From: Alphaproteobacteria bacterium
Lineage (GTDB): Bacteria > Pseudomonadota > Alphaproteobacteria > UBA7887
Assembly (NCBI GenBank): GCA_965216755.1
Contig: CBDCGL010000011.1
Location: 3,616,001-3,680,000 of the forward strand
Direction: 5' to 3'
Length of the DNA: 64,000 nucleotides
The stretch's first letter is position 1; the number at the start of each line of letters is the position of its first letter. The notes beneath the pieces were generated by a model, which was given only the letters and a program-made list of their open reading frames with translations, did not search any database and was not told the DNA's origin. A program made the translations under genes and the position numbers. This document shows positions 57,995-63,714 of the stretch, piece by piece.

Positions 57995-58225
57995 CGGGAC
58001 CTGACCCGGTTCGTCGTGCGCATGTGGCGAGGCTGCGTCATACGCTGGTTTCAAAAACCGCCAAATTCAGCTCTTTTTGGCGGCTGTCGGGTGGCCGGAT
58101 CAGGGCCGTCGCCGGCACCGCCCGCGGCTTTTCCGGTTGATCGTTAACTTTTGCGTTTCGGCGTTGAAACAAACGTCGCGCGGCTATCGCTTAACTCTGT
58201 GAGGTATTTCTAATTTCTAAAATGA

Positions 58226-58238
58226 AATCAATTAAATA
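58226..58238 (+). promoter_or_regulatory. Candidate IHF site
   Basis: AATCAATTAAATA, one mismatch from WATCAANNNNTTR, in an AT-rich tract directly upstream of the sigma54 promoter. Confidence 0.45.
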
Positions 58239-58254
58239 GTAATTTTTCGAAAAT

Positions 58255-58270
58255 TGGCACGGGTCTTGCT
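58255..58270 (+). promoter_or_regulatory. Sigma54 (-24/-12) promoter
   Basis: TGGCAC-GGGTC-TTGCT, an exact match to TGGCAC-N5-TTGCW, 145 nt upstream of the first secreted-protein gene. Confidence 0.85.
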
Positions 58271-58414
58271 GGGAAGGGGCCGCTAGGTAGTGAGGCGCAC
58301 GACGCTGTTCATGACCTGGGGGGTCTTGGCGTGTGTCGACAAAGGGAACGCAACAAGCCAGACACGCGCGATGGCCCCGCTCATGAGGACATAGGGACCT
58401 AGGAGAACAAAATA

Positions 58415-59602
58415 ATGAGGACCGGTACCTTGCTTTCCGCAGCCTCGGTCTTGGCGTTCAGCATCGCGCTGAGCGGCACCGCCGCAGGTCAGACGCTCGA
58501 CGACAACCAGCTCAATGTTGGCGCGTTGTTTGGGCAAGCAAATGGCAACGCAAATGATCGCAGCCGCGCAGACAACGACTTCATCGACGCCGACGTAACG
58601 CTGACCGACAACAATGCCGGGTTCGGCAACGCGTCGGGCGGCAGCACGGCCGACAATGACGGCATCGACAATAAGGGTGGCACGATCGACAACGATGGCT
58701 ACGACATCGACGTCAAAGATGTCACCGTCAAGGCTTCCAACGTCGAAGACAGCAACAACAGCAACGCCCTGTATTGGTGGTACAACTCGCTCAACACCGT
58801 GAATGTCGATCACAGTATTCACGACAACATCGCGATGCTCAGCCGCACCGATCTCGAAGCCATGGTGTCGGGCGTCAACATGTTCAACCTGAACGCCCAT
58901 GGCGCGGCCACCGGCGGTGCCGGCCTCGCGTATGCTGGCGGCGAAGCCAATGCGAAAGCCAAGGGCAAGGTCAAAGCCAAAGCTGACGGCGACTCGACGG
59001 CGCGCAACAAAAACCGCACCGACGCCGACTCTGGCGGATTCGCGCTGGGCGCGGCCGGCGGCAACACGGGCGGCGACGCCACCAACACGGCCGGCAGCTC
59101 GACGGCCCATGGCGGCGGTGCACTCAACGCCACCGATGGTACGGCAGCCGGAATCTTCATCGGCTTTGCGGCGAACAAGACCGAATCCACGGACGGCAGC
59201 GGCGACGCGGCCGGCGCGTCGGGTGCGGGCGGCACGGCAGCCGGCGATGCCGGCGATGTCGGCGACACCTTGGGACTCGCGGTGGTCGATGCCGACGCCA
59301 CGTCAGGTGCGGCCAAGGCCGACGCCAAGTCCGGCAATATCGGCAACATGGCAGCAGCCGGTAACACTTCCAGCGCGGACGCCAGCAACAACTCGGCAGC
59401 GACCATCGAAGGTGGCACGCAAACAACAACCCTGGATGTCAACTTCGCCACCGGCAGCATCTCCAGCATGATCAGTGATCTGCGCGGCATCAACCCGATC
59501 GTTCAGAACACTGGCTTTGCTTCCAACCAAAACGTCTCGATCAGCGTCAACGCGATGGTCGCCAGCGTCAACGGCGGCGGCACCATCGGTAGCGGCCGCT
59601 AA
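58415..59602 (+). CDS. Secreted Gly/Ala/Asn/Asp-rich protein, paralogue A (candidate fibre or amyloid-like structural subunit)
   Basis: AGGAG RBS, Sec signal peptide, no Cys, one Pro, xxDND repeats, C-terminal LRGINPIVQNTGFASNQNVSISVNA; strongly C-ending codons. Function is inferred. Confidence 0.85.
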   Translation: MRTGTLLSAASVLAFSIALSGTAAGQTLDDNQLNVGALFGQANGNANDRSRADNDFIDADVTLTDNNAGFGNASGGSTADNDGIDNKGGTIDNDGYDIDVKDVTVKASNVEDSNNSNALYWWYNSLNTVNVDHSIHDNIAMLSRTDLEAMVSGVNMFNLNAHGAATGGAGLAYAGGEANAKAKGKVKAKADGDSTARNKNRTDADSGGFALGAAGGNTGGDATNTAGSSTAHGGGALNATDGTAAGIFIGFAANKTESTDGSGDAAGASGAGGTAAGDAGDVGDTLGLAVVDADATSGAAKADAKSGNIGNMAAAGNTSSADASNNSAATIEGGTQTTTLDVNFATGSISSMISDLRGINPIVQNTGFASNQNVSISVNAMVASVNGGGTIGSGR

Positions 59603-59647
59603 TCGATTGTCGTCAAAGGTTTGAAGCAGGCTCTCTAGGAGGCAAAA

Positions 59648-60823
59648 ATGAGAAAACTCACCTTGTTGACCGCTGCGTCGGCCATGGCCCTGGGCTTGGG
59701 TCTTGCGCAGTCGGCGCAGGCCGTGGATGTGACCAACAACCAAGCCAATGTTGGTATCCTCGGCACCGCCAACAACAACGCCAACGATCGCAGCGTCACC
59801 GACAATGACGGTCTGGATCTGGATGTCAAAGCCGACAGCAACAATATCGGCTTCGGCAATGCCAGTGGCGAATCGACCGCAGACAACGACTTCGTCGACA
59901 ACAAAGAAGGCACCATCGACAATGATGAGGTCGACGTCGACGTCACCGGCGTGGATATCACCCTGTCCAACAAAGAGCGCAGCGGCAACACCGCCGTCTG
60001 GGCGATGATGTGGGGCTCGGGCAACAGCGCGTCATATGACGGCAGCATCCACAACAACATCGCGCAGCTGAGCCACACCCAGCTGAGCGCTGCGGTGACC
60101 GAAATCCAGATGTTCGATATCGAAGCCGGTGGCTACGCCTTTGGTGGCCTCGGCGCCGCGGTTGCCGACGGCGAAGCCAAAGCCCGGGCCAAGGGCAAGG
60201 TCCGCGCTAAGGCCGATGGTGACTCGACGGCCAAGAACCGCAACAAAGCGGATGCTGACGCGTTTGGCGCCACGGCGGCGGCGGCTGGCCACAACGAAGG
60301 TGGCACGGTCGAAAACGAAGCCGGCAACTCCGCCGCCAATGGCGGCTTGGCCATTAACCTCACCGATGGTGACGCGATCGCCTTGCTCGGTGCCGCGGCC
60401 AACTGGACCAAGTCCGAAGATGGCGGCAACGATGCCAAGGGCATGTCCGACAAGGGCGGCAGCGCCGAAGGTGCCGGCGGCGACGTCGGCGACACTGCCG
60501 CGGTTGCTTTGGTCGATGCCGACGCCAACTCTGGCGACGCCACCGCGACGGCGACGTCGGGTGACGTGGCCAACACGGCCGTTGGTGTCAACGAGTCGAC
60601 GGCCACGGCGTCGAACGACACCGAAGCCACGCTTGGCGGCTCCAGCCAAGAAACCAAAGTGGCGTTCAACTTCACGACCGGCGGCCTCCTCGGGTCGGTC
60701 GGAAGCCTGCGCGGAATCAATCCGGTCATGCAAAATACCGGCTTCGCGCACAATCAGAACGTTGGCGTCAGCGTTAACGCGTTGGTCGGCAGCGTCAACG
60801 GCTCGGGCTCGATCCGGCCGTAG
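59648..60823 (+). CDS. Secreted Gly/Ala/Asn/Asp-rich protein, paralogue B
   Basis: AGGAGG RBS, signal peptide ending AQA, colinear with paralogue A, C-terminal LRGINPVMQNTGFAHNQNVGVSVNA. Confidence 0.85.
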   Translation: MRKLTLLTAASAMALGLGLAQSAQAVDVTNNQANVGILGTANNNANDRSVTDNDGLDLDVKADSNNIGFGNASGESTADNDFVDNKEGTIDNDEVDVDVTGVDITLSNKERSGNTAVWAMMWGSGNSASYDGSIHNNIAQLSHTQLSAAVTEIQMFDIEAGGYAFGGLGAAVADGEAKARAKGKVRAKADGDSTAKNRNKADADAFGATAAAAGHNEGGTVENEAGNSAANGGLAINLTDGDAIALLGAAANWTKSEDGGNDAKGMSDKGGSAEGAGGDVGDTAAVALVDADANSGDATATATSGDVANTAVGVNESTATASNDTEATLGGSSQETKVAFNFTTGGLLGSVGSLRGINPVMQNTGFAHNQNVGVSVNALVGSVNGSGSIRP

Positions 60824-60853
60824 TAGCAACAACAGTCCTTCGACACACACACT

Positions 60854-60889
60854 GCGGTGGGAGGCCCCCCTCCCACCGCTTTTTTTTTT
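60854..60889 (+). terminator. Rho-independent terminator
   Basis: 11-bp stem GCGGTGGGAGG/CCTCCCACCGC, 4-nt loop, then T10. Confidence 0.9.
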
Positions 60890-62440: not shown

Positions 62441-63013
62441 CTAATTGCGTTTGGATCGGGCGAGCGGCCGGATCCGACGGCCGTCCGTAGCCGACGTCGC
62501 GTCGTCTGCTTTGGGATGGAGGCACGCGCACGATTTTGCCGCGCCGTCATCGACGGCATGGCTGACATACGCATCAATGGCGTCGGTGAGGGCATCTTGG
62601 ATGTGCAGGCGACGGTGTGCGGCGATCAGACGTAATTTGAAGTGACGCTGTGGGTCTAGCCGCACTGAAAGCCGCACCCGTCCGGTGCGGTCGCGCTTCA
62701 ATTCCGCCTCGGCGGCAATCTCCACCGCGCGCGGCGATCGCTGTTTGGTGTTCGACCGGGTGCTGGGCACAGCGTCGGTTGCCAACCGATCCAAGTCAGG
62801 CGCGCTCAATTCGGCAACGGCAGGACGTGGCGGCGCCAGACGGAGCAATGCGTCCGAATCTTCAATGGCCGGCAATAAGGCCAAATGATCGGCGATGTCG
62901 CTGAGGTCGTCCCGATGGTCGACGTCGCGCGCGAGCGGCGCGTCGCCAAGTCGCGACGGTGCCGCCGCACCCTTGCGGGCCAAAAGGCGGCTGGTCAAGG
63001 GCGCCGACTTCAT
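62441..63013 (-). CDS. Hypothetical ParA partner protein (basic N-terminal peptide, RHH-like C-terminus)
   Basis: Start overlaps the parA stop; LTSRLLARKGAAAP; RVRLSVRLDPQRHFKLRLIAA...IQDALTDAIDAYV. Confidence 0.7.
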   Translation of the reverse strand: MKSAPLTSRLLARKGAAAPSRLGDAPLARDVDHRDDLSDIADHLALLPAIEDSDALLRLAPPRPAVAELSAPDLDRLATDAVPSTRSNTKQRSPRAVEIAAEAELKRDRTGRVRLSVRLDPQRHFKLRLIAAHRRLHIQDALTDAIDAYVSHAVDDGAAKSCACLHPKADDATSATDGRRIRPLARSKRN

Positions 63014-63714
63014 ACAGCGGCCATCCGCGTCGGGCCGACAATGGCATCGCTGCCGGTGCCCGTGCGCGCCGAGGTAAACGCCGGTGGTGTCGCGGCGCGG
63101 GCGAGGCGCACCGCCAAATATTGCCACAGGTCATGGATCTCCTGCGCTGATTTGGAGCGTTCATTGAGCTCCATCACGGTGCGACCGTCGATCATGCTGG
63201 CGGCGAAATCGGTCCTTTGGTGAATGGTTATCGGCGCCACGGTGCCATGCTGCGACAAGGCGATTGCCGCCTCGGCCGTGATCCGGGCCCGTGGCGCGGC
63301 GCCGTTGATGACAAATGTCAGGGGTTTGCCCAGCCGTTCGACCAATTCGACCGTCGCGCCGGCGGCGCGCAAGTCATGTGGGCTCGGTCGTGTCGGAATT
63401 GCCACCAAGTTGGCCAAGCGCACGACATGTTCGATGGTTGCGGTGTTGGCTGGTGGTGTGTCGAAGATCAACAATTTGATGCCACGTGCGCGCATGGCCT
63501 GCATGTCTTCCGCCAACCGCGCGACAAATGTATGTGCGAAGACGGGCGTGTCGGCCGCGCGTTCGTTCCACCAGTCAGCCAAACTGCCTTGGGGGTCCGT
63601 ATCGATCATCGCAACCGGGCCGTGGCCGGCGCGTTCGGCTTGCACGGCCATATGGCCGGCCAAGGTGGTCTTTCCGGAACCGCCTTTTTGCGATGTAAAA
63701 GCCAATACTTGCAT
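63010..63714 (-). CDS. ParA family ATPase
   Basis: Deviant Walker A KGGSGKTT, IDTDPQGS, FDTPP, IPTRPSPHDL. Confidence 0.92.
   Translation of the reverse strand: MQVLAFTSQKGGSGKTTLAGHMAVQAERAGHGPVAMIDTDPQGSLADWWNERAADTPVFAHTFVARLAEDMQAMRARGIKLLIFDTPPANTATIEHVVRLANLVAIPTRPSPHDLRAAGATVELVERLGKPLTFVINGAAPRARITAEAAIALSQHGTVAPITIHQRTDFAASMIDGRTVMELNERSKSAQEIHDLWQYLAVRLARAATPPAFTSARTGTGSDAIVGPTRMAAV

Follow-up and report, generated by a model that had tools for sequence, protein, structure and literature searches.

Two adjacent genes, A and B, probably encode additional subunits of an extracellular fibre system of a divergent Fap type. They lie in a 64,000-nt stretch of an alphaproteobacterial genome (assembly GCA_965216755.1, contig CBDCGL010000011.1, positions 3,616,001 to 3,680,000; hereafter the window). 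A and B would be two of the five paralogous substrates of this system, and they are not linked to its other genes. Gene A (58415-59602, + strand) encodes a predicted secreted, low-complexity protein of 395 aa with a conserved C-terminal motif, and gene B (59648-60823, + strand) a paralogue of 391 aa (54% identical to A across 391 aa, E 2e-108); both are candidate fibre subunits. The two N-termini have, by eye, the appearance of Sec signal peptides. Neither protein contains Cys, Pro is found once in A and twice in B, and six residues (G, A, N, D, S, and T) make up 70% of A and 65% of B, with 37 Asp residues in A. Third-position GC is 0.79 in A/B (C occupying 55-59% of third positions) versus a GC content of 0.61 for the window. 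Each gene is preceded by a GGAG-type ribosome-binding site (TAGGAGAAC...ATG and TAGGAGGCAAAAATG). A sigma-54 (-24/-12) promoter, TGGCACGGGTCTTGCT (58255-58270, + strand), exactly matches the consensus TGGCAC-N5-TTGCT 160 nt 5' of the first ATG, and the unit ends with an intrinsic terminator (60854-60889, + strand; 11-bp stem with 9 G-C pairs at 60854-60879, 4-nt loop, T10). A first-pass annotation of the window had described A and B as a two-gene unit with a promoter, strong ribosome-binding sites, C-ending codon bias, and a strong terminator, encoding Sec-exported proteins with no Cys and almost no Pro, and all these features are indeed present.

A six-frame search of the genome returned six matches, corresponding to five genes (A to E) at three loci and to no other position. 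Paralogues C and D form a second tandem pair (C11:314370-316840), while E is a single copy (C11:4337890-4339083, - strand) located 0.66 Mb from A/B. Mutual identity among the five proteins is 48-55% (about 50% for E). The xxDND repeats, the SIH.NIA.LS block, and the near-identical C-terminus, already pointed out as shared by A and B, are the columns conserved in all five. Beyond this genome, these proteins behave as orphans. Neither A nor B has a match at E<=1 in Pfam (the set searched being without the FapBC model PF27129), and NCBIfam yields none for A and, for B, only a 13.9-bit match of the signal-peptide region to Spy. Among 5.8 billion proteins, A has three matches and the paralogue profile four, all of them on the window's own 4.85-Mb contig; similarly, the three matches of B among 1.84 billion cluster representatives all fall within its own genome. 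Protein A was found in none of the 60 genomes of relatives searched (22 from the same family and 38 from the same class). A protein-language-model search with A, which we regard as a lead only, gave top matches at 0.92 to Pseudomonadota proteins of about 300 aa, the nearest named cluster being FapB/FapC (0.76). An AlphaFold2 model of A built on the five-paralogue alignment is uninformative (mean pLDDT 27).

The connection with Fap comes from the neighbourhood of E (locus L008, at C11:4.33-4.34 Mb of the window genome). Four genes follow each other there on one strand: E itself, a gene for a small, signal-bearing FapB-like protein of 132 aa (L008:9407-9805, - strand), a gene for a FapD-like C39 peptidase of 233 aa with an N-terminal hydrophobic segment (L008:8644-9345, - strand), and, 3' of the latter, a gene for a FapE-like protein of 212 aa (L008:7990-8628, - strand). 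On the opposite strand beside them lie a sigma-54 enhancer-binding protein gene and a gene for a FapF-like barrel of 422 aa (L008:5874-7142, + strand), the sole member of the FapF family in this genome and unlinked to the window. The barrel matches the FapF structure 5O67 of the PDB over residues 131-415 (E 1.8e-31). Its match to the FapF model of NCBIfam (E 1.4e-46) spans positions 14-417 of the 420 in the profile, with a score of 159 bits, under the 700-bit equivalog cut-off. The peptidase matches Peptidase_C39 of Pfam (E 1.3e-22) and the NCBIfam FapD model (E 1.3e-43, 149 bits, cut-off 330). The 212-aa protein has no NCBIfam match at E<=1; in reciprocal phmmer searches, it and a genuine FapE retrieve each other (E 1.8e-4 and 9e-4, in a small set of ORFs of at least 70 aa from 16 loci). 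Profile comparisons with hhalign pair the fourth gene of such cassettes with FapE (P 0.0026) and the second with FapB (P 0.0016), versus 0.41 and 0.83 for the crossed controls; a genuine FapB matches second-gene proteins of other cassettes at E 0.008-0.27. No FapA-like match was detected at the loci compared. The earlier remark that no C39 peptidase or pore gene adjoins A/B is correct within the window, and the accompanying suggestion of a distant Fap-like family with unlinked machinery is supported: of the genes to be looked for around homologues, those for a C39 peptidase, a pore, and an enhancer-binding protein were all found beside E, together with a FapE-like gene.

The arrangement at E is not peculiar to this genome. 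FapF-family matches (E<=1e-10) occur in 31 of the 401 genomes sampled across the phylum (a tally that takes in genome G441), and five of them are above the cut-off. A quick maximum-likelihood tree of the FapF-like proteins (29 distinct rows, after removal of six of the 35 hits as identical copies) resolves them into two deep groups, and the branch between these has an SH-aLRT support of 100%. One group contains all eight rows labelled as cassette-linked, plus L030, L031, and L032, which are the FapF-like proteins of cassette loci L041, L039, and L040, respectively. The other contains all five FapFs above the cut-off and that of a three-repeat operon (row L023 of the tree, operon L038). When flanks were compared in 12 other genomes of the clade to which the window genome's FapF-like protein belongs, the same cassette was found in ten (L009, L010, L011, which is the same as L036, L012, L035, L037, L039, L040, L041, and L042): a low-complexity first gene, a small second gene, a C39 peptidase gene, and a FapE-like gene, alongside the FapF-like gene. 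In the remaining two (L013 and L043), the FapF-like gene is without a cassette within the stretch compared, L043 being at a contig end. First-gene proteins of these other cassettes are signal-bearing, 189-790 aa long, devoid of Cys, poor in Pro (0-3%), rich in N, S, T, D, and G, and often highly repetitive; second-gene proteins have 113-145 aa and fourth-gene proteins 149-256 aa. For comparison, we used a canonical fapABCDEF operon (L034, FapF above the cut-off) and operon L038 (G198:C1:1420001-1438000), which comes from the window's own class. The latter is a canonical-type fapBCDEF operon in which FapB and FapC each have three repeats, so that canonical and variant Fap types both occur in this class.

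The cassettes also contain a possible processing site. In eight of the ten variant cassettes, the fourth-gene protein carries (D/E)-x-(D/E)-L-x-x-x-R-G-G after its signal peptide (the remaining two have YGG and RAG), and a looser version of this EL...RGG site is found in the second-gene proteins. Canonical FapE reads ...ELAQLRGK... at the corresponding place. Rouse et al. describe GG sites in FapE as suspected targets of FapD (PMC5557850), which makes the RGG site a concrete candidate cleavage site for the neighbouring peptidase; it looks like a double-glycine-type site for a periplasmic C39 peptidase.

The three subunit loci share their regulatory signals as well. All of them have -24/-12 elements 160-195 nt 5' of the start codon, which match the consensus exactly at loci A and E and with one mismatch (TGGCGC) at locus C. 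The pattern TGGCA[CT]-N5-TTGC[AT] has 18 matches in the genome, two of which are upstream of paralogue loci. Taken within the window alone, the sigma-54 promoter that had been predicted for A/B is at chance level (three matches at no more than one mismatch versus 2.83 expected); the weight of this match thus comes from its recurrence upstream of all three paralogue loci. The genome encodes one RpoN above the family cut-off and six enhancer-binding proteins, one of which adjoins the FapF-like gene. This protein (485 aa; Sigma54_activat E 2.2e-70; weak VpsR-type N-terminal domain, E 9.7e-5) shares 46% identity across 380 aa with the product of the gene occupying the brfA position in the canonical operon L034, in reverse orientation downstream of fapF. 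Loci L013, L040, and L041 likewise have a homologous regulator beside their FapF-like gene, and consensus sigma-54 promoters precede the first gene in L010 and L040. In Pseudomonas fluorescens PF07, fapA-E is under a mapped RpoN -24/-12 promoter and requires BrfA, whose gene adjoins fapF in reverse (PMC9207406), and BrfA is reported to sense c-di-GMP (PMC13101488). A 2018 review stated that the fap operon encodes no regulator, a statement older than BrfA. Given the published control of fap by RpoN and BrfA, sigma-54 control of A/B is an expected Fap trait and not a novelty.

A dyad, GTTTC-N6-GAAAC, provides a candidate upstream activator site at 58155-58170 (+ strand), 100 bp upstream of the -24/-12 element of A/B. 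Strict sites number 10 in the 5.0-Mb genome, and GTT[TG]C dyads 18, where base composition would predict 6.6. Four strict dyads and one relaxed dyad are located upstream of the three paralogue loci, about 97-100 bp 5' of the promoter at A/B and (in relaxed form) C/D, and about 270 bp 5' of it at E. The enhancer-binding protein adjacent to the FapF-like gene may bind this dyad. The dyad was not found upstream of the related cassettes in other genomes, and one strict copy precedes an rpiB-like gene, inside which falls a sigma-54-like match (C11:152667); the dyad is therefore a lead and not an established operator. Between the dyad and the -24/-12 element of A/B lies an AT-rich tract of about 55 nt (58196-58250), and comparable tracts occur 5' of the promoters at loci C/D and E. 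Such a tract could be a candidate DNA-bending (IHF-type) site.

These observations bear on two other readings of A and B. In the first, they would be secreted or periplasmic proteins under sigma-54 control with no relation to the Fap-like machinery, and the location of E beside it would be incidental. Their location amid metabolic genes, 0.66 Mb off the machinery, and the statistical weakness of their sequence links to other cassette proteins would fit such a reading, but we consider it unlikely: E fills the first-gene slot, where an analogous protein is found in ten of the 12 related loci, all three loci have in common sigma-54-type promoters and a rare dyad, and the motif described below matches at the same place in all five paralogues. 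In the second, A and B would leave the cell by another route, namely RTX-like type I secretion, PEP-CTERM/exosortase sorting, or outer-membrane insertion. Both proteins do contain Gly/Asp-rich stretches, and the best NCBIfam match of the regulator is to the PEP-CTERM-box response regulator (E 3.5e-119, 398.6 bits, cut-off 502.6). This route is nevertheless very improbable, as A and B have apparent Sec-type signal peptides, which type I substrates are without, no RTX or other Pfam match at E<=1, and C-termini (...GSGR and ...SIRP) with no PEP motif, membrane-spanning segment, or terminal aromatic residue. The RTX, PEP-CTERM, and outer-membrane-protein readings were all rejected on these sequence features.

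The feature which may tie A and B to the other cassette proteins is a C-terminal motif. The first- and second-gene proteins of all cassettes end with a stretch of about 35 residues of the form ...aFaG..G.....QN(S/T)G.....Q....V.V.., and the corresponding motif in A to E is G-I/V-N-P-I/V-M/V-Q-N-T/A-G-F-A-x-N-Q-N ... S-V-N-A. By eye, it is N/Q/G-rich with alternating polar and hydrophobic residues like the Fap repeats, and resembles these canonical repeats, chiefly the last one of FapB. With a model made solely from the C-termini of 18 first- and second-gene proteins of the other genomes (the foreign motif model), the best domain in each of A to E is the C-terminal motif (8.3-18.3 bits), and the observed score was attained by 0, 6, 0, 0, and 3 of 300 residue shuffles, respectively. 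The A-E profile aligns with the second-gene family motif-to-motif only (31 columns, 39% identity, P 0.019). When the ORFs of six loci are searched with the A-E C-terminal model, the 132-aa protein is matched at E 0.0023. An uninformative AlphaFold2 model of the 132-aa protein (11 sequences, pLDDT 49) has three weak strands over the motif. Although weak, the statistics lean in a single direction, and the motif is likely to be a single Fap-like repeat. Used genome-wide, the motif models gave no significant additional matches, and no further motif-bearing substrates were found.

The same motif admits a reading in which A and B pass through the FapF-like pore without forming a fibre. They would then be soluble or surface-attached matrix, adhesin, or cation-binding proteins, and the motif would act only as a signal for export by, or docking to, the FapF/FapE-like machinery. 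The motif occurs once per protein, at the extreme C-terminus, in the first and second genes of every cassette, just as a secretion signal would sit; the acidic D/N-rich repeats (with the 37 Asp of A) could bind cations; the canonical Fap repeat is not detectable by our 12-repeat model; and the structural models of A and of the small protein are both of low confidence (pLDDT 27 and 49). On the other side, the substrates of FapF in characterised relatives are amyloid subunits, according to the structural work on this exporter (PMC5557850), the composition and alternation of the motif are those of Fap repeats as judged by eye, and the small motif-bearing protein occupies the position of FapB, the nucleator. 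We therefore regard export without polymerisation as somewhat doubtful, and favour the assignment of A and B to a Fap-type fibre.

Several results weigh against this assignment. No significant match was found between A or B and FapC, FapB, the Fap repeats, or curlin, so the link with Fap comes from gene context, the shared promoters, and the weakly supported motif. Profile searches likewise gave A and B no significant match to a PDB chain. The model made from 12 canonical Fap repeats matched no cassette protein, A to E included, its best hit being an unrelated ORF (E 0.17), and an hhalign comparison of the motif with the canonical repeat gave P 0.0073. In a search of 58,492 six-frame ORFs of the genome, the foreign motif model retrieved none of A to E at E<=10, its top match being the 132-aa protein at E 0.69; in the same set, the A-E C-terminal model ranked the 132-aa protein (E 0.28) behind one 58-aa ORF. 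The five paralogues are moreover non-independent tests of the motif. With one motif, versus three repeats in canonical FapC and FapB, a self-contained beta-solenoid layer is not available to each subunit. Finally, co-function is deduced across the 0.66 Mb separating A/B from the machinery, and the first gene is single-copy in the two related genomes tested, which leaves unlinked extra subunit operons without precedent in this small sample.

From the genes, their paralogy, their promoters, the linkage of E with the machinery, and the recurrence of the cassette, all of which are observed, we infer an acting activator, export through the FapF-like pore, a role for the motif, and polymerisation, which could be combined as follows. 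RpoN and the BrfA-like enhancer-binding protein would fire the -24/-12 promoters at A/B, at C/D, and at E plus its accessory genes. The subunits would cross the inner membrane via Sec and remain unfolded in the periplasm, where the FapD-like C39 peptidase would process an accessory protein, candidate targets being the FapE-like and small FapB-like proteins with the conserved EL...RGG site behind the signal peptide. The subunits would then be exported by the single FapF-like barrel. Outside the cell, the motif of about 35 residues would stack between subunits into a cross-beta spine, possibly nucleated by the small motif-bearing protein, and the G/A/N/D/S/T-rich remainder of about 330 residues would decorate the fibre.

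Such a system would share much with the Fap system of Pseudomonas (fapABCDEF and brfA). FapF is described as the gated trimeric exporter of Fap and FapD as a C39 protease needed for secretion (PMC5557850). Homologues of FapF (a trimeric gated barrel with an N-terminal coiled-coil region in Fap) and of FapD are present, together with a possible, weakly matching homologue of FapE and a small motif-bearing protein in the nucleator position. The subunits appear to be Sec-dependent, N/Q/G-rich, and disordered-looking, and an RpoN -24/-12 promoter and an adjacent enhancer-binding protein are recognised at the sequence level. However, A to E carry one C-terminal repeat-like motif instead of the three imperfect repeats of FapC, and the 132-aa protein likewise has a single motif and not the three repeats of FapB. 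The variant subunits contain a long lineage-specific low-complexity region, and A and B are without the C-terminal Cys-x-x-Cys present in the FapC of L034. Gene order also differs: instead of a single syntenic operon, the subunit, small protein, D, and E genes follow each other with F on the opposite strand, no FapA was found, and the window genome has five subunit genes at three loci. Finally, the FapF-like gene falls in a deep clade apart from canonical FapF, and the host is an alphaproteobacterium. The first survey of Fap confined it to Beta-, Gamma-, and Deltaproteobacteria (PMC3792158), and no paper among the literature matches listed paired Fap with Alphaproteobacteria. A 2025 survey describes Fap as evolutionarily fixed, with conserved synteny and three repeats almost universal in FapB and FapC (PMC12822426); some of the variant loci may already be among its approximately 10% of non-canonical clusters. 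The first-pass annotation had left the choice between a distant Fap-like family and a new one; the former is supported, as a variant of the known Fap kind and not as a new system.

Two other fibre systems are less close. As in the Fil system of Acinetobacter, a stand-alone C39 peptidase (FilB in Fil) is paired with a FapF-like barrel (FilC). However, the matches of our peptidase to FilB (E 8.1e-35, 120 bits, cut-off 475) and of our barrel to FilC (E 3.1e-22, 79 bits, cut-off 630) fall short of those to FapD and FapF, and neither A nor B was matched by a Fil subunit model; in strain Tol 5, the subunit of the Fil pilus is named as FilA (PMC11784438). These genes are thus not assigned to Fil. Curli (CsgA/CsgB, with the CsgG pore) similarly has secreted N/Q/G-rich subunits, a separate nucleator, and a dedicated outer-membrane exporter, along with the idea of paralogous major and minor subunits, but A and B have no curlin-repeat Pfam match at E<=1 and the linked pore is of the FapF type and not of the CsgG type (no CsgG search of the genome was made).

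On a more tentative note, it is conceivable that the sister clade as a whole builds fibres through a single C-terminal beta-arch per subunit, with the low-complexity region displayed as a brush, and that the five interchangeable subunits co-polymerise on one exporter into a mixed fibre with a tunable surface. The hosts of this clade comprise Alphaproteobacteria, metagenome-assembled genomes labelled as Bdellovibrionales, and other Pseudomonadota. The brush may be long, fast-evolving, and N/D/S/T/G-rich, and the spine an intermolecular cross-beta structure, which would differ from the 'fixed' three-repeat FapC. FapD, FapE, and FapF homologues travel here with a quite different cargo, made of single-motif, low-complexity proteins of 189-790 aa which escape the family models and the repeat profile run here. 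If these proteins are fibre subunits, the Fap export machinery serves wider and more plastic extracellular polymers than recognised. The window genome, which combines five paralogous subunit genes with a single pore and a single putative activator, is a natural test case: it could tell whether the motif acts as an export signal or an amyloid core, and how the choice among subunits is controlled. In annotation work, the cassette provides a rationale for naming orphan 'hypothetical' secreted proteins.

The surroundings of the subunit loci show a few additional features. Between E and the gene for the 132-aa protein lies, by eye, a G+C-rich inverted repeat with no T-run (C11:4337760-4337890), which might reduce read-through and so keep subunits in excess over accessory proteins. 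A 1418-aa ORF (C11:4326466-4330719, - strand) lies about 2 kb away from the gene for the enhancer-binding protein; it has repeated Asp-rich segments, looks adhesin-like by eye, and contains one GTTTC-N6-GAAAC dyad. Upstream of E are a 1127-aa TPR protein gene with a C-terminal SPOR domain (L008:13826-17206, - strand) and a 111-aa signal-bearing ORF (C11:4340027-4340359, - strand), the start of which is about 180 bp from a strict dyad (C11:4340539). In the window, the neighbours of A/B are, by eye, a LacI-type regulator, a dioxygenase-like gene, and a solute-binding protein gene. Near the end of the window lies an ORF for a ParA-like ATPase (63010-63714, - strand), in which KGGSGKT resembles a Walker A motif by eye; a second ORF (62441-63127, - strand) overlaps it.

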